From sequence record OR539218.1: a DNA stretch of 64,000 nt; one strand, 5' to 3'. Source of the stretch: Escherichia phage vB-Eco-KMB26. Both the position numbers and the translations under genes were made by a program. The notes beneath the pieces were generated by a model. The model was not told the DNA's origin. It worked only from the letters and a program-made list of their open reading frames with translations, and ran no database searches. This document shows, in pieces, positions 9,949 through 45,530 of the stretch (the first letter of the stretch is position 1; each line of letters starts with the position of its first letter).

Positions 9949-10419
9949 TTAATCATGTGTCCACACCCCATCGGTATTTGACCAAAGTCGCTGATTATCT
10001 GATCCTCGCCACAGCTTTTTGGTCGGAAGATTTTTCTCATACTTCCCATCAATAATAACATCAACATATTTAAGCATTTCTAGCTGTTTAATATCTTCAA
10101 ACTTATATCCTGTCCACAACCAAATGCTTTTATTGGGATAAAGATTTTTAATAGTTTGAACCACAGAGTGAATCACGTCTCTGTTATCAGGATAAAGAGG
10201 GTCACCTCCGGTTATAGTTAATCCTTCTATATAATCATTATTCAAACATTCAATCAATTGTTCTAGTGTTTCACCAGTGAATGGAATACCATTTCTAGCA
10301 TTCCATGTTGATTTATTATAACACCCTTCGCATTTATGCAAACAACCTGTAACGAAAAGAACGACCCTGCAACCAGGGCCATTCACAAAATCGCAAGGAT
10401 AAAATCTATCATAATTCAT
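9949..10419 (-). CDS. nrdG: Anaerobic ribonucleotide reductase activating protein (radical SAM)
   Basis: 156 aa; CLHKCEGC cluster; matches T4 NrdG. Confidence 0.9.
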   Translation of the reverse strand: MNYDRFYPCDFVNGPGCRVVLFVTGCLHKCEGCYNKSTWNARNGIPFTGETLEQLIECLNNDYIEGLTITGGDPLYPDNRDVIHSVVQTIKNLYPNKSIWLWTGYKFEDIKQLEMLKYVDVIIDGKYEKNLPTKKLWRGSDNQRLWSNTDGVWTHD

Positions 10420-12233
10420 TGATGCTTAACCCTATGCATGATTTCTTTATTTTTGCCGAGATTAAATCCGCGTTCGTTCGGATTTCCCAAATAACCACAT
10501 GTTCTTCTTATTGTGTTCATCTTTTTAGGATCAGTTTCTCCACAAATAGAACAAACAAATCCGTTTTCAGTAGGAGTCATTTCATGGGTACTTCCACATG
10601 TAAAACATTTATCTACTGGCATATTAACACCAAAATAATCTAAATGTTGTGCAGCATAATCCCAGACAGCCTCAAGACCTTTTAGGTTATTTTTCATATC
10701 AGGAAGTTCAACATAAGAAATGTGACCACCTGTCGCAATGAAATGATATGGCGCTTCACGAGAAATTTTTTCAAACGGAGTAATATTTTCTTCTACTGAA
10801 ACGTGGAAACTATTAGTATACCAGCCTTTATCGGTAACATCTTTTACACTTCCATATTTTTCTGTATCAAGTTTACAGAAGCGATAACAAAGGTTTTCAG
10901 CAGGAGTCGAATATAAACTAAAAGCAAACCCAGTTCTTTCAGCCCACTGTTTAAGACGAGCATTCATTTTAGTTAAAATTTCTTGTCCAATATCACGACC
11001 AACAAGAATATTCAATTCATGAATACCAATGTATCCTAAAGACACTGAACTTCTACCGTTTTTAAATAACTCAATTATGTCGTCATCAGGTTTAAGACGA
11101 ACCCCGAATGCACCTTCTTGGTAAAGAATAGGAGCAACAGTCGCTTTAACTCCTTTTAAGGAACTAATTCTACACATCAAAGCTTCAAAACATAAATCCA
11201 TTCGCTCATTGAACAATTCAGTAAATTTCTGTTCATTGAACTGTGTTCCAATATAAGAATCCAACGCAATACGAGGAAGATTCAGTGTTACAACACCAAG
11301 ATTATTACGTCCATCAAGAATTTCATTACCGGTTGAATCTTTCCACGCACTCAAGAAACTGCGGCAACCCATTGGAGAAACAGGAATAGATGAGCCGGTG
11401 ATAGCTTTATTGTTCTTAGCTGAAATAATATCAGGATACATCCTTTTGCTTGCACACTCTAGAGCAAGCTGCTTAATATCATAGTTCGGATCGTCTTTAT
11501 AAAGATTAACACCTTCTTCAACGAACATAACAAGCTTAGGGAAAATAGGAGTTATCCCATCACGACCGAGACCTTTAATACGATTTTTCAGAATTGCTTT
11601 CTGAATCATTCGTTCAGTCCAGTCAGTTCCCGTACCAAATGTAATTGTTACAAAAGGAGTCTGTCCGTTTGAACTAAAGAGAGTATTTACTTCATATTCA
11701 TAAGCTTGGAATGCATCGTATACATCTTTTTCTGTTTTAGATTGAGCATAATTTAACGCATCAGCGATTTGCCATTTTTCTGCATCCTCAATATGTTTTG
11801 CATAGGTGCGTTTAACATAAGGAGAAAGTATTTTATCTACATTCGCAAAAGTCGTTCCGCCGTATTGGTGAGAAGCAACTTGCGCAGTAATTTGTGCCAT
11901 AATTGCAGTAGCAACGCCAATTGATTTAGGAGTTTCAATCTGTGCATTACCAAGCTTAAATCCGTTTTCAAGCATTCCTTTTAAATCTACTAAACAACAA
12001 TTAGTAAATGGAAGAGCAGGGGAATAATCAATATCATGGAAATGAATAATTCCGCTTTCATGCGCTTTCATAATAAAAGACGGGACCATATTTTTGGCAA
12101 TGTGTTTAGACACAATACCAGCCATAAGGTCCCGTTGAGTTGGAAAAACACGAGAATCTTTATTAGCATTCTCGTTTAAAAGGTCTTTATTAGTTTTATG
12201 AATCAATCCTTCAATTTCTTTTTCAATTGTCAT
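10416..12233 (-). CDS. nrdD: Anaerobic ribonucleoside-triphosphate reductase, uninterrupted (no intron)
   Basis: 605 aa; C-terminal Zn ribbon and glycyl-radical motif RRTCGYLG; matches spliced T4 NrdD. Confidence 0.93.
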   Translation of the reverse strand: MTIEKEIEGLIHKTNKDLLNENANKDSRVFPTQRDLMAGIVSKHIAKNMVPSFIMKAHESGIIHFHDIDYSPALPFTNCCLVDLKGMLENGFKLGNAQIETPKSIGVATAIMAQITAQVASHQYGGTTFANVDKILSPYVKRTYAKHIEDAEKWQIADALNYAQSKTEKDVYDAFQAYEYEVNTLFSSNGQTPFVTITFGTGTDWTERMIQKAILKNRIKGLGRDGITPIFPKLVMFVEEGVNLYKDDPNYDIKQLALECASKRMYPDIISAKNNKAITGSSIPVSPMGCRSFLSAWKDSTGNEILDGRNNLGVVTLNLPRIALDSYIGTQFNEQKFTELFNERMDLCFEALMCRISSLKGVKATVAPILYQEGAFGVRLKPDDDIIELFKNGRSSVSLGYIGIHELNILVGRDIGQEILTKMNARLKQWAERTGFAFSLYSTPAENLCYRFCKLDTEKYGSVKDVTDKGWYTNSFHVSVEENITPFEKISREAPYHFIATGGHISYVELPDMKNNLKGLEAVWDYAAQHLDYFGVNMPVDKCFTCGSTHEMTPTENGFVCSICGETDPKKMNTIRRTCGYLGNPNERGFNLGKNKEIMHRVKHQ

Positions 12234-12745: not shown

Positions 12746-12922
12746 TTAAGTATTGTAAAACATTCGATGCAATCGTTTATACTGTCGAATCATCTTTTTA
12801 GTAGGACGAGAATAGGTTCCTACGCAAGTGGTCATATGAGGGTCCGTAGAATGTCCTTTAATAAAAAGTTTCCAAACCTTACCGCCATTTAACTTTTCAG
12901 TATAAACCAATTCGGTTTTCAT
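12746..12922 (-). CDS. Small ORF (58 aa) whose C-terminus (IRQYKRLHRMFYNT) duplicates the pin C-terminus
   Basis: Hand translation; below ORF-track cutoff; shares a 45-bp imperfect direct repeat with the pin 3' end. Confidence 0.4.
   Translation of the reverse strand: MKTELVYTEKLNGGKVWKLFIKGHSTDPHMTTCVGTYSRPTKKMIRQYKRLHRMFYNT
12747..12791. repeat. Copy 1 of a 45-bp imperfect direct repeat (copy 2 at 12960-13004)
   Basis: taagtattgtaaaacattcgatgcaatcgtttatactgtcgaatc vs caagtattataaaacatttgatgcaatcgcttatattgccgaatc. Confidence 0.8.
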
Positions 12923-12958: not shown

Positions 12959-13444
12959 TCAAGTATTATAAAACATTTGATGCAATCGCTTATATTGCCG
13001 AATCTTTTGGTCAGAAAAAGAAATTTGAGTTTCAAGCCATTCAATGTACTCTGCGGCAGCTTGCATCAGGTTACCTTCATAGCCATCGTTATTTTCTTGT
13101 GCAGCTAATTTAGCTAATGCGTATGAAATACGTTCACCTTGAAAATCGGCTTTAGGCTTCTGAACAACTTGATTAGTTCGCTCTACAACTTCTTCAATTT
13201 CGCCATTTTCGACTGATTCAGTATTCCACAAGCACCAATACGTAATTGGCTTATCGTAGATGTTAATAATCTTTCCGTCGGAAAGTTCAATTTCAATAAT
13301 TCCAGTGTCAGGCTCTATATCATCTTCACATTCTTTTACAAGTTCACGAACTTTAAAGACAGTACCTGCACTAAGTTCCGGCCAGTAATTACATAGCCCT
13401 GTATCAACACGATTAATTCTAAACCACTTATCTACTGTAATCAT
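12959..13444 (-). CDS. pin: Protease inhibitor Pin-like protein
   Basis: 161 aa from the GGAG-preceded ATG (MITVDKW...); size and position match T4 pin. Confidence 0.7.
   Translation of the reverse strand: MITVDKWFRINRVDTGLCNYWPELSAGTVFKVRELVKECEDDIEPDTGIIEIELSDGKIINIYDKPITYWCLWNTESVENGEIEEVVERTNQVVQKPKADFQGERISYALAKLAAQENNDGYEGNLMQAAAEYIEWLETQISFSDQKIRQYKRLHQMFYNT
12960..13004. repeat. Copy 2 of the 45-bp direct repeat (inside pin 3' end)
   Basis: See copy 1. Confidence 0.8.
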
Positions 13445-13566
13445 GTCCCATCTCCATATCAATTAAGTCATTTATCGTTGGTTCATTATATACTGTTTCT
13501 TCATCAGTGTAAACCGGTTCTTCCGGCTCTGGCTCTACAGTTTCCCATCTAGCCGCCCACCAAGGT

Positions 13567-14216: not shown

Positions 14217-14459
14217 TTATTCCTTAATTCCTAGTACTTGTTTAAAAGTCTCGTCGTAATCAAGACTTTGGCCCGTTTGTTCTTTATGTTTGTATATAAT
14301 ATCACTTACTTCTGATAGCATATTTTTATATGAACGAGTTAAAGCAGATTTAAGCACGCTGTATCTATCAGGAAATTTACCGTGTTCATTATAATAAGCT
14401 ATTGCTAATTCACGGACTGCCTTTTCAGCAGCCTCCATATATTCTTTACGCTTGGTCAT
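14217..14459 (-). CDS. Hypothetical protein (nrdC.1 position)
   Basis: 80-aa ORF. Confidence 0.55.
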
Positions 14460-14461
14460 TT

Positions 14462-14851
14462 TTAATCCAAAATATTATTAGGCATTGGTTGAACACTCAC
14501 AAGTTCTTTAAAGAACTCAGTAGAGTCAGGCAATTTAACCATTTCCGGAGCATGCTTACTGAATTTATGTTTACATTGACGGCATTTATATTCAAGCTCT
14601 GGTTTACGCCAGTTAATCAACTGAACTTGTTCAGTACCGCATTCAGGGCAATTAGGAACGTTTTTAGAAGCTCTTTCACGTCGTTCAACCATAGCCATAA
14701 TAGCATCCCATGCTGGAGGTTTAAAATCTAAATCGTCGCAGCCGTGAATCTTTCCACGCATTTCCATATCATCTTCCTCACCAGCCATAATAATTTTAAT
14801 TAAACTGGAATTACTTGAAGCTGCAATGTCTTCTAATAAACGCTTTTTCAT
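14462..14851 (-). CDS. Hypothetical protein with zinc-ribbon-like CPECG...CRQC motif
   Basis: 129-aa ORF; four Cys in CxxC...CxxC spacing. Confidence 0.55.
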
Positions 14852-15777
14852 TTCAATACCTCAATAGCATTACGTAAACCATTTGCTTTTGCATTAAGAG
14901 CTTTTAACAATTTGGTGTGTTCTGCAATTTGGGCTTCAACTTCAATCAAACGGGCATTGAGATATTCACGTTCTTCACTCAGATTATCAACCTTTTCTAC
15001 TTTAGGCTCTTTTACAACTGTCTTATATGTATTAGGGTTCTTCAGTTTAATTAGAATGCGTGAACTGTACAGCATTGAATCATTATCTTCGGTTTCGTCA
15101 TACATTTCCACTACGTCCATCATCTCCACCATCGTGCAGAGTTTATAAGACAACGAACGAATAATTTTGTTGTGCTTATTAATTTCTCTAGCTGTCATGG
15201 TGCCGAGATTACGTGAGTAATAATAAGGAACCTGGATATTAATTAATACTGATGAACCACCTGGCTTGTGTGTTACTTCATCAGCAATAACCCAATCCTT
15301 AACATGAACTGTATTTGTACGGTCATCGCCCGCGGTAAATAGTTTACGAGCATGCTTAAAAAGCATATTCACTTGGTCATTGAATTGACAAGCGAATTTA
15401 TCAGCAAATTTAGTTTCGGGAATGGTAGATAACCAATCAGCCAAATGGGTCTTTTTAACATCGTTAACAATAGTAAATTCAACCAAATCGGTTATAGATG
15501 TCGCAGTTTTAATGAATCTCGGCTTCATAAAGTTTTTAATGTTATCGCGAGCTACAGTAGAAGATAACATACGAGAACGTTTAAACCATTCAAGTAAATT
15601 GCCTAACGAATGAGAATAAGCGTTCTGAGTATCTTTACAGATATGATTTTCCTGGCCAACATACTGAAGGAAATCACGAAGAATATTATTGATTACTGCT
15701 CTGTGTCCTATCTGATAATCACGATGTTTAGTAATAAGACTGTCAAAATAATCAATATAATGTTTACGAGTTTTCAT
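14848..15777 (-). CDS. Hypothetical protein with C-terminal coiled coil; paralog family member 1
   Basis: 309 aa; MKTRKHYIDY start; heptad-rich C-terminal ~50 aa. Confidence 0.6.
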   Translation of the reverse strand: MKTRKHYIDYFDSLITKHRDYQIGHRAVINNILRDFLQYVGQENHICKDTQNAYSHSLGNLLEWFKRSRMLSSTVARDNIKNFMKPRFIKTATSITDLVEFTIVNDVKKTHLADWLSTIPETKFADKFACQFNDQVNMLFKHARKLFTAGDDRTNTVHVKDWVIADEVTHKPGGSSVLINIQVPYYYSRNLGTMTAREINKHNKIIRSLSYKLCTMVEMMDVVEMYDETEDNDSMLYSSRILIKLKNPNTYKTVVKEPKVEKVDNLSEEREYLNARLIEVEAQIAEHTKLLKALNAKANGLRNAIEVLK

Positions 15778-15829
15778 ATTCTTCTCACTTGGTTAATGGT
15801 TTATACTCCGAGCCATCCTTGGCTTTAAA

Positions 15830-16831
15830 TTACTTAATTAACTGTAAAGCTTGTTCAAGACGATCAAGACGATTAACGGATTCTTCCCAAATCTTTTTAG
15901 CCTGCTCATATTCTTTCTGCGCTTTATTAGAAATTTCTAGAACTTCTTTATAAGCTTTTTCTAGTGCAATAACTTCTGGACGAATTTCTACTGGTTCAGG
16001 CGAATCGTCAAGACATTCCATTAGTTCCTCAAGGGTAGTTTCTTCTTTAGGAGTATTCACAATTTCATCACATTTTTGTTGGTAAATTTCTTTATCAGTC
16101 GGTGAGTACGCACACTTTACTTCACGGAGACTAACTACAATTTTATATCCTTCCCAACCGCATATATTCTTAAAAGGATAAGTATGAATATTTTCTACTG
16201 TTTCCATACAAAGTAATGCGGTCTCTAACTGACGAGTTATATCGCTAGCAATTGAGAAAAATTTATTAATGTTCTTTTGATTAGCTTCTGGTGTAAAAAA
16301 TTCATAATTCACAAAAATAGCTGCTTTATTTTTATCAAGCTCATATTCTTTTATGATAATCATATCAGAAGCCCAAGGATGGATTTGACGATAATCACCA
16401 TAGCATAATTTAGAAGTTGATTTTAGAATTTGCTTCTTGAAAAGTCTAAAATTACTAATCCAACGACGAGTAAAAATATTCTCAGGGTCTTCTTTATTAT
16501 TAAGATGATAAGAATTAACATCACCGAACCAACTGTATCCTACTACATCTTTAGTTCGTTTAATTTCTTTCCCAAATTTACCAAGAATATCTTGATTAAC
16601 TAAATATGAAAGAAGACGAGAACCTTTAAAAGTTTCCTTAATATCATCTTTATATTCGCGACTAGAAATTTTATGAACTTCATGAATAAATTTGCTTGAA
16701 GAAACAATACTTGCATCAATATTATTGAGCCATTGATTGATAATGGAAATAACACTATTCTGACTAAACACAGGTTTAACTTTATCATCAATAACGCTAT
16801 TGAATGATTTGATATATTCGTTACGAGTCAT
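15830..16831 (-). CDS. Hypothetical protein with C-terminal coiled coil; paralog family member 2 (ORF track extends to 16882)
   Basis: Start at MTRNEYIKSF, preceded by GAGGAG RBS. Confidence 0.6.
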   Translation of the reverse strand: MTRNEYIKSFNSVIDDKVKPVFSQNSVISIINQWLNNIDASIVSSSKFIHEVHKISSREYKDDIKETFKGSRLLSYLVNQDILGKFGKEIKRTKDVVGYSWFGDVNSYHLNNKEDPENIFTRRWISNFRLFKKQILKSTSKLCYGDYRQIHPWASDMIIIKEYELDKNKAAIFVNYEFFTPEANQKNINKFFSIASDITRQLETALLCMETVENIHTYPFKNICGWEGYKIVVSLREVKCAYSPTDKEIYQQKCDEIVNTPKEETTLEELMECLDDSPEPVEIRPEVIALEKAYKEVLEISNKAQKEYEQAKKIWEESVNRLDRLEQALQLIK

Positions 16832-16859
16832 ATTAATCTCCTCAGTAGAAAGTAAGAAC

Positions 16860-16889
16860 ATTATACCACATCCTTGTGGCAAAGTAAAC
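16860..16889 (-). promoter_or_regulatory. Early promoter (-35 TTTAC, -10 TATAAT)
   Basis: Minus-strand agTTTACtttgccacaaggatgtggTATAAT upstream of the 16831 start. Confidence 0.5.
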
Positions 16890-17911
16890 TAGTTTAGTGC
16901 ATTTAGTGCATTGTTCAGTTTAGAACGTTGCTTCGTAAGATTTTTGACTTTTTCTTGAGCTTTTTCTAGCATCTTTTCAGCTTCTAGCACTTCATTAGTT
17001 GCTTTAACGAGTTCATCATCTACTGCCTTGATAGACTTCTCAATCGCATCCGCGTGCCATTTTTCAACAGGTTTAAGACTCGGATTTTCAATAGGAAGAA
17101 AATTCACTTTATTGAATTTCCATGCATCTTTATTACCTGAGCTATACATCCAAAATTTAGGATCGTTTGATGAGCAATTAGATAAATTTAAGTTATCTTG
17201 CACTTCCTGCTTTTTCTCTTGCGGGACTTCATCCTTTCTCAAAAAATCGTATTTAAATGAAACGATCATATCAAGTTCATACGTTGTTGTATGTTCCCAA
17301 TTTCGCTCAAAATGAGGTAAAATCTTAGACTGAACAGCGGCAACAACATCCATATACTTAAATGCTTCTGTCAACTGTGATTTAAGGCATTCACAAATTG
17401 AAAGAGAATTTTTTGTATTAGGTTTAAAGCTAATTCGTGCAGTTCTATTATTTTCTTTTAATGGTCTTACTTCCATCTGAAGAGTATAACCATCAAATTT
17501 CAGGTTCTTTAAGTTAATGTCAGAACCTTTTAATCGACTAGCCGTCGACAAAATTTGCTTTAATTGTTTACGGAATAGAGCAATAAATCTCCATTCAAGA
17601 CGGTAATGATTTGGATTAAAAAATCCTGTTGATAAATCAACCTTACTCTGACCAACGCCTTGAACAAATAGAGGATTTTTATAATCAATAGTTTTACAGA
17701 AATCGGTGAGCTGTTCGCGAGCAGTCATTTGCGTAATATATCCAGCTTTATCAAAATGTCGCAGCCATTCACTGCTATTCATATACTTAAAGTGATGAAT
17801 AACACGATTAACTTTATCAGGGTCTAAATTATTTTCACACAAAAATGTCATAACATCACGAGTATAGCTGGCATTACGAACCATATCTTCAATTTGAGAA
17901 CGAGTTTTCAT
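16889..17911 (-). CDS. Hypothetical protein with C-terminal coiled coil; paralog family member 3
   Basis: 340 aa; MKTRSQIEDM start. Confidence 0.6.
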   Translation of the reverse strand: MKTRSQIEDMVRNASYTRDVMTFLCENNLDPDKVNRVIHHFKYMNSSEWLRHFDKAGYITQMTAREQLTDFCKTIDYKNPLFVQGVGQSKVDLSTGFFNPNHYRLEWRFIALFRKQLKQILSTASRLKGSDINLKNLKFDGYTLQMEVRPLKENNRTARISFKPNTKNSLSICECLKSQLTEAFKYMDVVAAVQSKILPHFERNWEHTTTYELDMIVSFKYDFLRKDEVPQEKKQEVQDNLNLSNCSSNDPKFWMYSSGNKDAWKFNKVNFLPIENPSLKPVEKWHADAIEKSIKAVDDELVKATNEVLEAEKMLEKAQEKVKNLTKQRSKLNNALNALN

Positions 17912-17919
17912 GGTGTTCC

Positions 17920-18828
17920 TTAAGATTTAAGTAAATCAACGATTTTAATTAATTTTTCACGCTCAGATTTAGCTTTACTACTCAATCCAGATAGTCTGAA
18001 AATTTCATCATCATATTGCTGAATAGAAATATTTAGCTCTTCAATCTGCTTATTAAAATAAGCAATTTGTTCAGAATGTTTTTCATTACTGCGAACTGGT
18101 ACAGGTTTTGTAGGTAATTTAGTTGAACTGGATTCATCTGGGCGATAAATTAAAATGCAATTTGAACCAATCGGACATTTAGCACCAGACACATATTCTA
18201 ATGTTCCGGCTTCTTTTAAAACTTCAAAAGCTAAACAGAGATGATGCCCCATATTAACATAATCTGTAGAGCGAGCTCTGATGTAATAATCATCTCCACG
18301 AGTACTAAATTTAAAGCATTTAAGGTCTTCTGTATTATTGGTCTTAAAAATCATTTGTTTATCTAGACCTTTAGCTAATCGAGCGCCTAATGCTAATAAT
18401 CGTCGTTGATTTTCCCACAAATCCGCAATCATTTGGTCAAATGATAATTTCGGCATTAGTCTACCATAAAGGTCATATCCTTTATTATAATTGCGAAGGA
18501 TTTCACTCGCATTAATACGAGACAACGCTCCAATTTTATTAAGGGCTTTCATGATGCGATTAGATAAACCCATTCCAGATCCGTTTGTTCGTTGCAAATG
18601 TTTATCTAACCCAAACCCAATATCAACTTTAAATTTATCTAAAATTTCAGCATGAACATCTCTGTCAATAACATTCAAATCCAAAGTTGGGTTAAATCTA
18701 TGAAAAAATTTATCTGGCTCTCCACGACGAAGTACAGTCCATTCATTTAATTTTTTATTAACTAAAGATTTAATTACTGCATTGACATTATTAATTACTA
18801 CTGACATATTTTCCTCACTCAATTTCAA
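17920..18828 (-). CDS. Hypothetical protein with C-terminal coiled coil; paralog family member 4
   Basis: 302-aa ORF. Confidence 0.6.
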   Translation of the reverse strand: MKLSEENMSVVINNVNAVIKSLVNKKLNEWTVLRRGEPDKFFHRFNPTLDLNVIDRDVHAEILDKFKVDIGFGLDKHLQRTNGSGMGLSNRIMKALNKIGALSRINASEILRNYNKGYDLYGRLMPKLSFDQMIADLWENQRRLLALGARLAKGLDKQMIFKTNNTEDLKCFKFSTRGDDYYIRARSTDYVNMGHHLCLAFEVLKEAGTLEYVSGAKCPIGSNCILIYRPDESSSTKLPTKPVPVRSNEKHSEQIAYFNKQIEELNISIQQYDDEIFRLSGLSSKAKSEREKLIKIVDLLKS

Positions 18829-19277: not shown

Positions 19278-19805
19278 TTATGCGAGTACCGTCTTTAACC
19301 GTTCTTCAAACTTCCGAAGAGTATTCTGGCGTTCAGCTCTTTGCTTTTTGTAAGTTTCAATACGCTCTGAAATGAGAGTGTATCGTTCATTTACTGATTC
19401 TTTCATAAAATCAGGAATTTCACGAGAAGCTTTAATCTCATCAAATTTATCAATAACAGCTTGCTCTTCAGCAATTAAGTTATCATACATCAAAATATCT
19501 TTCTTGATGAACTCAATATCTTCTTGAGTTACACGAGATAATTTAGATGCTTTATCCTTTTTGTACTGTTCGTTAGTATCACGAGACCAGTGTAATGTAC
19601 GATTTTTATTCGTATTCTTGTAAATTTCTACAATACCAATCTCATCGATAATAACGATCCAATTCCAACGAGATTTGTAAATTTGTCCTCCGTCAACCGT
19701 GATTTCACCTCCGATTGAGATGTCATTAAAGAACTTACTTTGTGCTTCAGATTTAAATTTACCATCGTTGTAATTTACCAGGTTGAAAATATCTTTAGCG
19801 TTCAT
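19278..19805 (-). CDS. Hypothetical protein
   Basis: 175-aa ORF; GGAGG RBS; early promoter upstream. Confidence 0.6.
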   Translation of the reverse strand: MNAKDIFNLVNYNDGKFKSEAQSKFFNDISIGGEITVDGGQIYKSRWNWIVIIDEIGIVEIYKNTNKNRTLHWSRDTNEQYKKDKASKLSRVTQEDIEFIKKDILMYDNLIAEEQAVIDKFDEIKASREIPDFMKESVNERYTLISERIETYKKQRAERQNTLRKFEERLKTVLA

Positions 19806-37307: not shown

Positions 37308-37383
37308 TGGTCGAGGCAGTAGGGATCGAACCTACGACCCAGGACTTAGAAGGTCCTTGCTCTTCCTTCTGAGCTATGCCTCG
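37308..37383 (-). tRNA. tRNA-Arg (anticodon UCU), CCA encoded
   Basis: Hand-folded cloverleaf: 7-bp acceptor, anticodon loop cuUCUaa, T-loop TTCGATC. Confidence 0.85.
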
Positions 37384-37387
37384 TATT

Positions 37388-37462
37388 TGGCGGACGTGAT
37401 AGGATTCGAACCTATAACCAATCGCTTAACAGGCGATCGCTCTGCCATTGAGCTACACATCC
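37388..37462 (-). tRNA. tRNA-Asn (anticodon GUU), CCA encoded
   Basis: Hand-folded cloverleaf; anticodon loop cuGUUaa. Confidence 0.8.
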
Positions 37463-37466
37463 AAAT

Positions 37467-37553
37467 TGGTGGGGAGTGGTGGAGTCGAACCACCCGAGTC
37501 GCAATGACAATGAATTTACAGTCCACACCGCTACCTCTACGGGATAACTCCCC
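37467..37553 (-). tRNA. tRNA-Tyr (anticodon GUA), long variable arm, CCA encoded
   Basis: Anticodon loop cuGUAaa; 87 nt; perfect acceptor stem. Confidence 0.7.
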
Positions 37554-37562
37554 AAATTAATT

Positions 37563-37637
37563 TGGTGGCCCTGGGTGGAATTGAACCACCATCTGGCGAT
37601 TATGAGTCGCTTGCTTGAACCTTCCAGCTACAGGGCC
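37563..37637 (-). tRNA. tRNA with CAU anticodon (most likely the AUA-reading tRNA-Ile by position; Met not excluded)
   Basis: Perfect 7-bp acceptor; anticodon loop cuCAUaa; position matches T4 tRNA-Ile. Confidence 0.7.
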
Positions 37638-37638
37638 T

Positions 37639-37714
37639 TGGTGCTGATTGACGGAATCGAACCGCCGACCTTCTCATTACAAGTGAGTTGCTCTACCTAC
37701 TGAGCTAAATCAGC
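37639..37714 (-). tRNA. tRNA-Thr (anticodon UGU)
   Basis: Hand-folded; anticodon loop cuUGUaa. Confidence 0.85.
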
Positions 37715-37719
37715 AAAAC

Positions 37720-37809
37720 TGGCGGAGGCGATAGGATTTGAACCTATGAGTCGCCGGAGCGACTGCCGGTTTTCAAGACCGGTGCATTAAACCACTCTGC
37801 CACGCCTCC
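37720..37809 (-). tRNA. tRNA-Ser (anticodon UGA), long variable arm
   Basis: 90 nt; anticodon stem CCGGU/ACCGG; loop cuUGAaa. Confidence 0.85.
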
Positions 37810-37811
37810 AG

Positions 37812-37885
37812 TCTCCGTGGCAGGATTTGAACCTACGACATTCTGCTCCCAAAGCAGACGCTCTACCAAACTGAGCTACACGGAG
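37812..37885 (-). tRNA. tRNA-Pro (anticodon UGG), no encoded CCA; abuts tRNA-Ser
   Basis: Hand-folded; anticodon loop uuUGGga. Confidence 0.85.
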
Positions 37886-37895
37886 TAAATTAAAT

Positions 37896-37969
<74 letters not shown>

Positions 37970-37974
37970 AAATT

Positions 37975-38061
37975 TGGTGCGAGAAGTGGGACTCGAACCC
38001 ACAAGGAAATCATTCCGCAGCATTTTAAGTGCTGTGCCTTTACCAATTTGGCCATTCTCGC
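37975..38061 (-). tRNA. tRNA-Leu (anticodon UAA), long variable arm
   Basis: 87 nt; anticodon stem CAGCA/UGCUG; loop cuUAAaa. Confidence 0.85.
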
Positions 38062-38062
38062 G

Positions 38063-38135
38063 CTGGGAATAAAGGACTCGAACCTTTGCATCCTGGAATC
38101 AAAATCCAGTGCCTTACCAACTTGGCTAATTCCCA
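38063..38135 (-). tRNA. tRNA-Gln (anticodon UUG), no encoded CCA; abuts tRNA-Leu
   Basis: Hand-folded; anticodon stem CUGGA/UCCAG; loop uuUUGau. Confidence 0.85.
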
Positions 38136-42729: not shown

Positions 42730-43181
42730 TATGCCCCCTTAAAGCCAAGAGCTCGTAATCCATCTTCTGTCAGAATTCTAAATTTTATTCCACGCTTTTC
42801 AGCTAAAGCTTGCGCTGCTTTCCATTTGTCGGTATTAACAGAATATGTATAAATTTCATTCATAAATCTTTTCTTCGCTGCGGTTGTTAGATGTGCTGGT
42901 TTAACTGGTGGTTGTGTTTCTTTTTTAGGTTTTATTTCAATAAAAAATTCTTGTCCAGAAGAATCTTTCATCCAAATATCCATGAAGTATCTACGTTTTT
43001 TCCCTTCTGCATTACAAAAATAAGGAATTACTGCTGTTTCACTACCCCATGCAATAATTTCTGGATTTTTATCTAACCATTCAAAAAAGAATTTTTCCCA
43101 ATTTGATCTATACGTAATTTTTTTAGGGTCACCTCTATACTTTGATATATTTTTAGGAACCCATTTTCCAGAATATGCCAT
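42729..43181 (-). CDS. 4: Head completion protein gp4
   Basis: 150 aa; [21 protein letters not shown]...; ATGA-coupled to gene 2. Confidence 0.85.
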
Positions 43182-43192
43182 TGGATTCTCCT

Positions 43193-43200
43193 TATAAATA
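43193..43200 (+). promoter_or_regulatory. Late promoter TATAAATA for gene 53 and downstream baseplate genes
   Basis: Exact TATAAATA about 28 nt upstream of the gene 53 ATG. Confidence 0.7.
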
Positions 43201-43207
43201 GATAATA

Positions 43208-43215
43208 TATTTATA
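43208..43215 (-). promoter_or_regulatory. Divergent late promoter TATAAATA for the gene 4-2-3 unit
   Basis: Exact TATAAATA on minus strand, back-to-back with the plus-strand promoter. Confidence 0.6.
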
Positions 43216-43228
43216 AACAGGAGGGCCC

Positions 43229-43819
43229 ATGCTCTTTACATTTTTTGATCCGATTGAATATGCGGCCAAAACGGTGAATAAAAACGCGCCGACTATTCCT
43301 ATGACAGATATTTTTAGAAACTATAAAGACTATTTTAAACGCGCTCTTGCGGGATACCGCTTACGTACTTATTATATCAAAGGTTCACCACGCCCGGAAG
43401 AATTAGCAAATACTATATATGGAAATCCACAGTTGTATTGGGTTTTATTGATGTGTAATGATAATTATGACCCGTATTATGGATGGATTACTTCACAAGA
43501 AGCAGCTTATCAAGCATCTATACAAAAATACAAAAATGTAGGTGGAGACCAAATAGTATATCATGTGAATGAGAACGGTGAAAAATTTTATAATTTAATA
43601 TCATACGATGATAATCCATATGTTTGGTATGATAAAGGTGATAAAGCTAGAAAATATCCTCAATATGAAGGAGCACTTGCTGCTGTTAATACGTATGAAG
43701 ATGCTGTTCTTGAAAATGAAAAACTTCGTCAAATAAAAATAATAGCAAAATCAGACATTAATTCATTTATGAACGACCTTATACGTATAATGGAGAAATC
43801 TTATGGAAATGATAAGTAA
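43229..43819 (+). CDS. 53: Baseplate wedge protein gp53
   Basis: 196 aa; GGAGG RBS; position before gene 5. Confidence 0.85.
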   Translation: MLFTFFDPIEYAAKTVNKNAPTIPMTDIFRNYKDYFKRALAGYRLRTYYIKGSPRPEELANTIYGNPQLYWVLLMCNDNYDPYYGWITSQEAAYQASIQKYKNVGGDQIVYHVNENGEKFYNLISYDDNPYVWYDKGDKARKYPQYEGALAAVNTYEDAVLENEKLRQIKIIAKSDINSFMNDLIRIMEKSYGNDK

Positions 43820-45530
43820 TAACCTTAATTGGTTTGTTGGTGTTGTTGAAGATAGAATGGACCCATTAAAATTAGGTCGTGTTCGTGTTCGTGTGGTTGG
43901 TCTGCATCCACCTCAAAGAGCACAAGGCGATGTAATGGGTATTCCAACTGAAAAATTACCATGGATGTCAGTTATTCAACCTATAACTTCTGCAGCAATG
44001 TCTGGAATTGGAGGTTCTGTTACTGGACCGGTAGAAGGAACTAGAGTTTATGGTCATTTTTTAGACAAATGGAAAACTAACGGAATTGTCCTTGGCACGT
44101 ATGGTGGAATAGTTCGCGAAAAACCGAATAGACTTGAAGGATTTTCTGACCCAACTGGGCAATATCCTAGACGTTTAGGAAATGATACTAATGTATTAAA
44201 CCAAGGCGGAGAAGTAGGATATGATTCGTCTTCTAACATTATCCAAGATAGTAACTTAGACACTGCAATAAATCCCGATGATAGACCACTATCAGAGATT
44301 CCAACCGATGATAATCCAAATATGTCAATGGCTGACATGCTTCGCCGTGATGAAGGATTAAGACTAAAAGTTTATTGGGATACTGAAGGATATCCGACAA
44401 TTGGTATTGGTCATCTTATCATGAAGCAGCCAGTTCGTGATATGGCTCAAATTAATAAAGTTTTATCAAAACAAGTTGGTCGTGAAATTACTGGAAACCC
44501 AGGTTCTATTACGATGGAAGAGGCGACGACTTTATTTGAACGTGATTTGGCTGATATGCAACGGGACATTAAATCACATTCTAAAGTAGGACCAGTCTGG
44601 CAAGCTGTCAACCGTTCTCGTCAAATGGCGTTAGAAAATATGGCATTTCAAATGGGTGTTGGCGGTGTAGCTAAATTTAACACAATGTTAACTGCTATGT
44701 TAGCCGGAGATTGGGAAAAAGCATATAAAGCCGGTCGTGATTCATTGTGGTATCAACAAACAAAAGGCCGTGCATCCCGTGTTACCATGATTATTCTTAC
44801 GGGGAATTTGGAATCATATGGTGTTGAAGTGAAAACCCCAGCTAGGTCTCTATCAGCAATGGCTGCTACTGTAGCTAAATCTTCTGACCCGGCTGACCCT
44901 CCTATTCCAAATGACTCGAGAATTTTATTCAAAGAACCAGTTTCTTCATATAAAGGTGAATATCCTTATGTGCATACAATGGAAACTGAAAGCGGACATA
45001 TTCAGGAATTTGATGATACTCCTGGGCAAGAACGATACAGATTAGTTCATCCGACTGGAACTTATGAAGAAGTATCACCGTCAGGAAGAAGAACAAGAAA
45101 AACTGTCGATAATTTGTATGATATAACCAACGCTGATGGTAATTTTTTGGTAGCCGGTGATAAAAAGACTAACGTCGGTGGATCAGAAATTTATTACAAC
45201 ATGGATAATCGTCTTCACCAAATAGATGGAAGCAATACAATATTTGTACGTGGCGATGAAACTAAGACAGTTGAAGGCAATGGAACTATCCTAGTTAAAG
45301 GTAATGTTACTATTGTAGTTGAAGGTAATGCTGACATTACAGTTAAAGGAGATGCTACCACTTTAGTTGAAGGAAATCAAACTAACACAGTAAATGGAAA
45401 TCTTTCTTGGAAAGTTGCTGGGACAGTTGATTGGGACGTTGGTGGTGATTGGACAGAAAAAATGGCATCTATGAGTTCTATTTCATCTGGTCAATACACA
45501 ATTGATGGATCGAGGATTGACATTGGCTAA
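43803..45530 (+). CDS. 5: Baseplate central spike / tail lysozyme gp5
   Basis: 575 aa; internal lysozyme domain (DEGLRLKVYWDTEGYPTIGIGH); C-terminal VxGxxxx beta-helix repeats. Confidence 0.95.
   Translation: MEMISNNLNWFVGVVEDRMDPLKLGRVRVRVVGLHPPQRAQGDVMGIPTEKLPWMSVIQPITSAAMSGIGGSVTGPVEGTRVYGHFLDKWKTNGIVLGTYGGIVREKPNRLEGFSDPTGQYPRRLGNDTNVLNQGGEVGYDSSSNIIQDSNLDTAINPDDRPLSEIPTDDNPNMSMADMLRRDEGLRLKVYWDTEGYPTIGIGHLIMKQPVRDMAQINKVLSKQVGREITGNPGSITMEEATTLFERDLADMQRDIKSHSKVGPVWQAVNRSRQMALENMAFQMGVGGVAKFNTMLTAMLAGDWEKAYKAGRDSLWYQQTKGRASRVTMIILTGNLESYGVEVKTPARSLSAMAATVAKSSDPADPPIPNDSRILFKEPVSSYKGEYPYVHTMETESGHIQEFDDTPGQERYRLVHPTGTYEEVSPSGRRTRKTVDNLYDITNADGNFLVAGDKKTNVGGSEIYYNMDNRLHQIDGSNTIFVRGDETKTVEGNGTILVKGNVTIVVEGNADITVKGDATTLVEGNQTNTVNGNLSWKVAGTVDWDVGGDWTEKMASMSSISSGQYTIDGSRIDIG

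Follow-up and report, generated by a model that had tools for sequence, protein, structure and literature searches.

We investigated four consecutive genes, nrdC.3, nrdC.4, nrdC.5 and nrdC.6, in a 64,000-nucleotide stretch of the genome of Escherichia phage vB-Eco-KMB26 (sequence record OR539218.1; the whole stretch is called the window). The reading that we favour, with some reservation, is that they form an ancient tandem array of paralogs with a modular body and tail and a counter-defence function. Profile comparisons firmly indicate that nrdC.3, nrdC.4 and nrdC.5 are diverged paralogs, predicted structures make nrdC.6 a probable fourth member, and a C-terminal heptad tail in the same register is found on all of them. 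The genes themselves and the function of nrdC.5 were already known; what is new is placing all four together on one scaffold, which yields candidates for testing.

The four genes and their starts

The window belongs to a T4-like (Tequatrovirus) genome, and this region shares 99.8% identity with phage vB_EcoM-CHD16UKE1 and ~92% with T4. The four consecutive open reading frames (ORFs) of about 300–340 aa described in the initial annotation are all present where it had placed them, every one on the minus strand, with nrdC.6 probably 295 aa long. By their match to T4 they are its nrdC.3, nrdC.4, nrdC.5 and nrdC.6.

14848–15777, minus strand: nrdC.3, 309 aa, start MKTRKHY; nrdC.3/4 family, phrog_1435 (homologs with PF26897)
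14851–14985, minus strand: nrdC.3 C-terminal heptad tail, approximately residues 265–309
15830–16831, minus strand: nrdC.4, 333 aa, ATG start, begins MTRNEY; phrog_1435
15833–15979, minus strand: nrdC.4 C-terminal helix and heptad tail, residues 285–333, end RLEQALQLIK; from the AlphaFold2 (AF2) helix at 285–332 and the family heptad test
16860–16888, minus strand: promoter-like site of T4-early type in the nrdC.5–nrdC.4 gap, GTTTAC, 17 nt, TATAAT with TG; GAGGAG Shine-Dalgarno next
16889–17911, minus strand: nrdC.5, 340 aa, start MKTRSQ; Pfam DUF7235, phrog_2351
16892–17062, minus strand: nrdC.5 C-terminal heptad tail, residues 284–340, end KLNNALNALN
17920–18807, minus strand: nrdC.6, 295 aa from the ATG at 18807 (MSVVINN); phrog_2257 (homologs with PF26899); probable distant paralog
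17923–18084, minus strand: nrdC.6 C-terminal heptad tail, helix interrupted at GLSSK to give two, end KLIKIVDLLKS

The mechanical ORF of nrdC.4 reaches a TTG at 16882. We place the start at the ATG at 16831, because the TTG falls inside the promoter-like site and the Shine-Dalgarno sequence GAGGAG sits just before the ATG. The promoter-like site itself is a consensus match, and over the whole region promoter-like sites show no excess over shuffles. For nrdC.6, an earlier TTG at 18828 gives 302 aa; the ATG at 18807 is most likely the true start, since the T4 annotation and every homolog start at this codon, as does the PHROG profile, and it removes the overlap with nrdC.7.

The four proteins differ in how closely they follow T4. 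NrdC.5 of the window shares 92.6% amino-acid identity with T4 NrdC.5, nrdC.4 has a tail 100% identical and an N-domain 89% identical to those of T4, and the nrdC.3 allele is 61% identical to that of T4 and 75% identical to a Mosigvirus allele. NrdC.5 matches DUF7235 (PF23882) over residues 1–340 with 429 bits (cut-off 30; E 1e-128), and the other three have no match to DUF7235 even at E ≤ 1, placing them outside that Pfam family. The full-length profile of phrog_1435 matches both nrdC.3 (E 1e-115) and nrdC.4 (E 1e-165), and phrog_2257 matches residues 8–302 of nrdC.6 (numbered from the TTG; E 4e-152), whose homologs carry PF26899. PF26897 is a precomputed annotation on all nrdC.4 homologs; a local Pfam scan gave no match of this family to nrdC.3 or nrdC.4.

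nrdC.3, nrdC.4 and nrdC.5 as diverged paralogs

Using single-sequence BLASTP and phmmer searches among the four proteins, we found that only the nrdC.3/nrdC.4 pair is significant (BLASTP, 24% identity over 229 aa); the two have one PHROG in common. A hidden Markov model (HMM) of the nrdC.4 family finds nrdC.3 at E 1e-15 (nominal database of 1 million), and HMM-versus-sequence searches across the families returned nothing for nrdC.5 or nrdC.6. NrdC.3, nrdC.4 and nrdC.6 are each less than 25% identical to nrdC.5. The initial homologs of nrdC.5 were shallow, all more than 83% identical, and HHalign against nrdC.4 then reached only 47–78%. A tblastn search yielded positional orthologs of nrdC.5 in Dhakavirus, 22–23% identical, and one Mosigvirus copy. 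With alignments enriched with these Dhakavirus and Mosigvirus orthologs and with hits of the representative search, HHalign joined nrdC.5 to the nrdC.3/4 family over the whole length at 96–98% (E 2e-9 to 3e-13).

This match extends beyond the tails. The nrdC.5 body aligns with the nrdC.3/4 bodies at 85–93% (E 2–8e-7) once the tails are removed, and the tails alone align at their C-terminal end with 76% probability. One bridging representative, P0233, has a full-length nrdC.3/4 profile match with an nrdC.4-like N-terminus and an nrdC.5-like tail. These profile comparisons firmly support nrdC.3, nrdC.4 and nrdC.5 as diverged paralogs. The proposal of four divergent paralogs in the initial annotation therefore holds for nrdC.3 and nrdC.4 (BLASTP) and for nrdC.5 (HHalign), with detectable similarity between their N-terminal bodies; for nrdC.6, whose body gives only a non-significant 5–16% by HHalign against the others, the relationship is probable and structure-based.

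A heptad tail in the same register on all four proteins

By heptad score, nrdC.5, nrdC.6 and nrdC.3 have tails that rank 4th to 6th among the 66 window ORFs of at least 100 aa and that exceed their own shuffles (0–2 of 300 reach the score); nrdC.4 is weaker as a single sequence. The family alignments are more telling. Positions a and d are hydrophobic in 84%, 93% and 78% of the sequences of the three families, against 27%, 20% and 25% elsewhere, and the register runs unbroken over 49–57 residues (7–8 heptads), a length that 0–1 of 2000 column shuffles reach. Counted from the C-terminal K/N, the register is identical in all three families, and the tails contain well over the four continuous heptads with hydrophobic a/d positions that define a coiled coil. 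A terminal motif, L-x-x-[A/I/V]-h-x-h-L-[K/N], is found on all members in three genera and, as a motif derived post hoc, selects these four and no others from the 243 open segments in the window. In the AF2 models, the nrdC.4 tail is one 48-residue helix (285–332) and that of nrdC.6 is two helices (242–271 and 277–294) with a short break. The predicted local distance difference test (pLDDT) score of the nrdC.4 helix is modest in this monomer model (67–76), as may be expected of a helix modelled without its partner.

In each family, conservation is highest in the tail. Among distant members, tail identity is 57%, 35% and 64% in the three families, compared with 39%, 23% and 41% for the N-domain. 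The heptad-rich tail of about 50 residues on all four proteins, and the plan of a variable N-terminal body with a shared C-terminal coiled coil, are both borne out by these family alignments.

nrdC.6 as a probable distant paralog

The case for nrdC.6 comes from predicted structure. The AF2 model of nrdC.4 begins with a helical bundle at the N-terminus, followed by an alpha/beta sandwich, a disordered proline-rich linker and the 48-residue terminal helix. The core elements of nrdC.4 and nrdC.6 are collinear (H-H-h-E-E-H-E-E), and in Foldseek searches the two models match the same 7 BFVD targets (E ≤ 2e-3), which are proteins of 300–370 residues from distant T4-like phages. When nrdC.6 and nrdC.4 were globally aligned by sequence only, their DSSP strings agreed with a three-state score (Q3) of 0.75, against 0.42 ± 0.07 in shifted controls (maximum 59%), corresponding to z = 4.8, and 3.65 for the body alone. 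The common targets, the collinear core and the DSSP agreement together suggest a common fold for the nrdC.4 and nrdC.6 bodies, and nrdC.6 is probably a paralog of the other three.

An unlikely alternative is that only nrdC.3, nrdC.4 and nrdC.5 are paralogous and that nrdC.6 is an unrelated protein of comparable size that obtained its tail by convergence or recombinational capture. The profile comparisons agree with this, as no significant sequence or profile signal links nrdC.6 to the other families (HHalign local, 0.3–16%) and the HMM searches are empty. Capture of a tail is also physically possible, as seen in Salmonella phage Manna, where Manna_094 (L008 2715–3752) is an in-frame nrdC.6::nrdC.4 chimera in which the nrdC.6 body and first tail helix are joined at a shared DEI to the nrdC.4 linker and tail; nrdC.5 is lost in this phage. 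However, neither convergence nor capture of a tail sits well with two bodies that reach the same 7 distant proteins, with the identical order of secondary structure in their cores and the DSSP agreement within the body, or with the position of nrdC.6 next to the others in three genera, where its tail has the same heptad register and terminal motif. In Shigella phage Sf25, the nrdC.6 homolog P0121 (378 aa) is annotated as ~80 residues longer than the others, which may reflect a mis-called start or an upstream fusion.

Distribution, polymorphism and copy loss

The array would be one family restricted to T4-like phages (Straboviridae). When 1.84 billion proteins were searched exhaustively with the nrdC.3/4 profile, 10 representatives (at 50% identity) were found; cellular homologs were absent, as were nrdC.5 and nrdC.6 members. 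The presence/absence comparison across T-even genomes suggested by the initial annotation shows that Tequatrovirus carries four copies and that Mosigvirus and Dhakavirus carry three each, with nrdC.4 deleted in Elenatom and three copies lost in ACG-C40. We had considered ACG-C40 as a case in which the body was exchanged and the nrdC.3 tail retained, and discarded this since the annotation shows a deletion remnant instead. In Acinetobacter phage Acj61, two adjacent Foldseek relatives with heptad tails (p120 and p121) lie at the corresponding position between nrdC and nrdC.10; neither gives a sequence signal against the family profiles, so that the link consists of Foldseek and synteny.

Within this distribution, nrdC.3–5 are far more polymorphic than the flanking genes. 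Among hits of at least 80% identity, the share that is at least 95% identical is 93% for nrdD and 94% for nrdC.6, compared with 61% for nrdC.3, 35% for nrdC.5 and 20% for nrdC.4. NrdC.3 forms discrete allele classes within Tequatrovirus (~60% identical), and 292 further records lie at 58–80% identity. The ratio of nonsynonymous to synonymous substitution rates (dN/dS) against T4 is 0.18–0.31 for nrdC.3–5 and 0–0.12 for gp49, nrdC, nrdC.1 and nrdC.8–11. A value for the nrdC.6 tail was discarded, as the T4 record is apparently frameshifted there. Next to nrdC.3 lies nrdC.2 (14462–14851, minus strand), a 129-aa protein with two CxxC pairs (CPEC...CRQC, zinc-ribbon-like); that of T4 has 104 aa and is 76% identical. 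The synonymous rate (dS) between the two nrdC.2 copies is above 1, suggesting that allele replacement spans nrdC.2 and nrdC.3 together.

Evidence for a proposed counter-defence function

The functional precedent comes from T4. A T4 clone with a deletion removing nrdC.5 fails on cells carrying the sirtuin defence Dsr1, and nrdC.5 alone, expressed in trans, restores infection of Dsr1 cells (Srikant et al. 2022, eLife, PMC9391042). Several neighbours are also known inhibitors: nrdC.1 inhibits Septu and Bas37_0203 inhibits Druantia III, both according to the HIDEN-SEQ preprint, and gp49.2 inhibits OLD, as published. Its position and length (528 nt) identify Bas37_0203 as the ortholog of nrdC.8. 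The same preprint scored nrdC.3–6 as non-essential in T4 and Bas37; all four can be dispensed with on laboratory hosts. The nrdC.5 phenotype, together with the inhibitors nrdC.1, nrdC.8 and gp49.2 nearby, places the array in an anti-defence island. In the window, two of these neighbours are placed as follows.

14217–14459, minus strand: nrdC.1, 80 aa, 98.8% identical to that of T4
19278–19805, minus strand: nrdC.8, 175 aa, 98.9% identical to that of T4

NrdC.8 itself ends in a heptad-like helix that ranks 7th of the 66 ORFs on the heptad score, with a different terminal motif.

Based on this precedent, we infer that nrdC.3, nrdC.4 and nrdC.6 are also counter-defence proteins. In the model that we propose, the array sits in the accessory region between nrdC and nrdC.10, where at least nrdC.4 would have its own putative early-type promoter. 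Each protein would consist of a fast-evolving body of ~240–260 residues (helical bundle and alpha/beta sandwich), a short proline-containing linker and the conserved tail, a C-terminal amphipathic helix of 7–8 heptads. Each body may directly bind and neutralise a different host immune protein, with T4 NrdC.5, acting against the Dsr1 NADase, as the functional precedent, and the tail may oligomerise the protein or dock it to a common partner.

Several points weigh against this model. On the side of structure, the homology of nrdC.6 is suggested by transitive Foldseek hits and by models of moderate confidence (mean pLDDT 83.5 for nrdC.4 and 79.3 for nrdC.6), next to the profile comparisons that found no signal for it. 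The heptad scoring is our own heuristic rather than a calibrated coiled-coil predictor, and an amphipathic helix on its own could instead pack against a partner with no coiled coil being formed. On the side of function, dN/dS is below 1 for every gene, indicating that no gene as a whole is under positive selection, and within Tequatrovirus the conservation of nrdC.6 equals that of nrdD. We found no function in the literature for nrdC.3, nrdC.4 or nrdC.6, nor a link of these genes to a defence system, and no mechanism, by binding or otherwise, for nrdC.5 against Dsr1; nor do the HIDEN-SEQ screens on clinical isolates report hits in the three genes. The arms-race diversification proposed in the initial annotation accordingly stands in part: the anti-Dsr1 activity of nrdC.5, its neighbours and the polymorphism of nrdC.3–5 agree with it, and the dN/dS values and the conservation of nrdC.6 do not.

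Other searches added little to either side. PDB sequence searches returned no solved structures or real relatives, the hits to designed helical repeats being compositional; PADLOC gave only a coiled-coil-type chance match to BrxC; and we found no paper uniting the three Pfam families.

Alternative functions

The family may be real and serve mainly another purpose, as early host-takeover or accessory factors such as scaffolds or regulators, with an indirect effect of nrdC.5 on Dsr1. We consider this improbable. It would fit the purifying selection on all genes, the good conservation of nrdC.6 and a literature that offers no mechanism for nrdC.5 and no phenotypes for the other three. However, expression of nrdC.5 by itself in trans is enough to rescue infection of Dsr1 cells, four genes of this neighbourhood have experimentally demonstrated anti-defence activity, and the discrete allele classes, inter-genus exchange and copy loss of the array are typical of host-range genes, unlike core takeover functions. 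The occurrence of the family in phages only, with the few representatives found by the nrdC.3/4 profile, also argues for counter-defence over host takeover.

A more specific version of the counter-defence model, which we regard as quite a long shot, is a modular platform in which the conserved coiled coils would assemble the paralogs into homo- or mixed oligomers. Several different bodies with a tail-terminator-like sandwich would be displayed on these as early decoys or pseudo-ligands for defence sensors (Dsr1, Avs-like). Bodies made early would occupy repeat-type sensor domains before the late structural proteins appear. The receptors targeted in this way would be those recognising conserved virion protein folds. 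For nrdC.5, a tail-terminator decoy is not directly supported, since the Dsr1 sensor recognises the major capsid protein according to a preprint.

Finally, a role as thioredoxin-like redox proteins tied to ribonucleotide reduction has next to no likelihood: the product name 'thioredoxin' on these genes in many phage records and their position near nrdC point that way, but no thioredoxin or redox family matches in Pfam even at E ≤ 1, the AF2 folds are a helical bundle plus an alpha/beta sandwich without PDB relatives, and the same records put the label on nrdC.7–nrdC.10 as well. The GenBank label on nrdC.2 to nrdC.10 homologs, none of which has a thioredoxin family match, is an annotation artefact; as it covers nrdC.7–nrdC.10 too, it most likely follows the nrdC gene-name prefix.

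Other features of the window and its relatives

Elsewhere in the window, a 58-aa ORF (12746–12922, minus strand) ends IRQYKRLHRMFYNT, and the neighbouring Pin-like ORF (12959–13462, minus strand) ends nearly alike in IRQYKRLHQMFYNT; from the similarity of these ends, the short ORF appears to duplicate part of the 3' end of pin. NrdD (10416–12233, minus strand) is an uninterrupted ORF of 605 aa, whereas in the T4 record the I-TevII intron interrupts the gene. Ten tRNA genes (Arg, Asn, Tyr, Met, Thr, Ser, Pro, Gly, Leu and Gln) lie at 37308–38135 on the minus strand, and this cluster accounts for the spike in GC content at 36–38 kb (0.43 versus ~0.34). The GC skew turns from negative to positive at ~43000–45000, as would be expected if the main coding strand switches there. 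In Acj61 (L006 1229–3938), a nicotinamide phosphoribosyltransferase gene adjoins one for ribose-phosphate pyrophosphokinase; the pair resembles an NAD+ reconstitution pathway, and such pathways are reported to counteract defences that deplete NAD, DSR1 among them.

Implications

T4 is the best-studied phage, yet most of its accessory genes are without known function. If the scaffold in common with NrdC.5 is true, it provides three specific hypotheses, one each for nrdC.3, nrdC.4 and nrdC.6. Body and tail appear to be swappable, which offers a way to dissect the mechanism, and the Manna chimera is a natural swap of this kind. The array also illustrates how quickly counter-defence proteins may drift beyond sequence recognition, with 22% identity between positional orthologs of sister genera and none recognisable in Acinetobacter phages. 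Given such drift, synteny combined with predicted structure can recover families of this type where sequence searches fail.

Comparison with known systems

The closest known system is T4 NrdC.5 itself (DUF7235, PF23882). The nrdC.5 of the window is its ortholog, nrdC.3 and nrdC.4 are homologs by profile, and nrdC.6 is probably one by fold. The anti-Dsr1 activity was demonstrated with the T4 allele rather than with that of the window. Phage tail terminator or tail completion proteins, with a lambda gpU-like fold, are also among the closest known systems. DSAD1 resembles NrdC.5 in role only, as an accessory protein of a phage that inactivates an NAD-depleting defence of the SIR2 type; three reports (PMC10973363, PMC10981675, PMC11087589) describe it as counteracting or repressing the DSR2 sirtuin defence. 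It differs in coming from another phage group (Bacillus phages) and in having solved complexes, and we found no sequence or fold relation between it and the proteins of the array. Direct binding by NrdC.5 is putative. At the level of gene organization, other T-even anti-defence islands, for example the anti-toxin-antitoxin island dmd-tifA-adfA (PMC9391042), likewise consist of early, dispensable and highly polymorphic genes of small to medium size, several of them directed against specific defences. The island described here comprises gp49.2 (OLD), nrdC.1 (Septu), nrdC.5 (Dsr1) and nrdC.8 (Druantia III), and it would differ from the dmd-tifA-adfA type in containing four adjacent, probable paralogs on one scaffold rather than unrelated genes.

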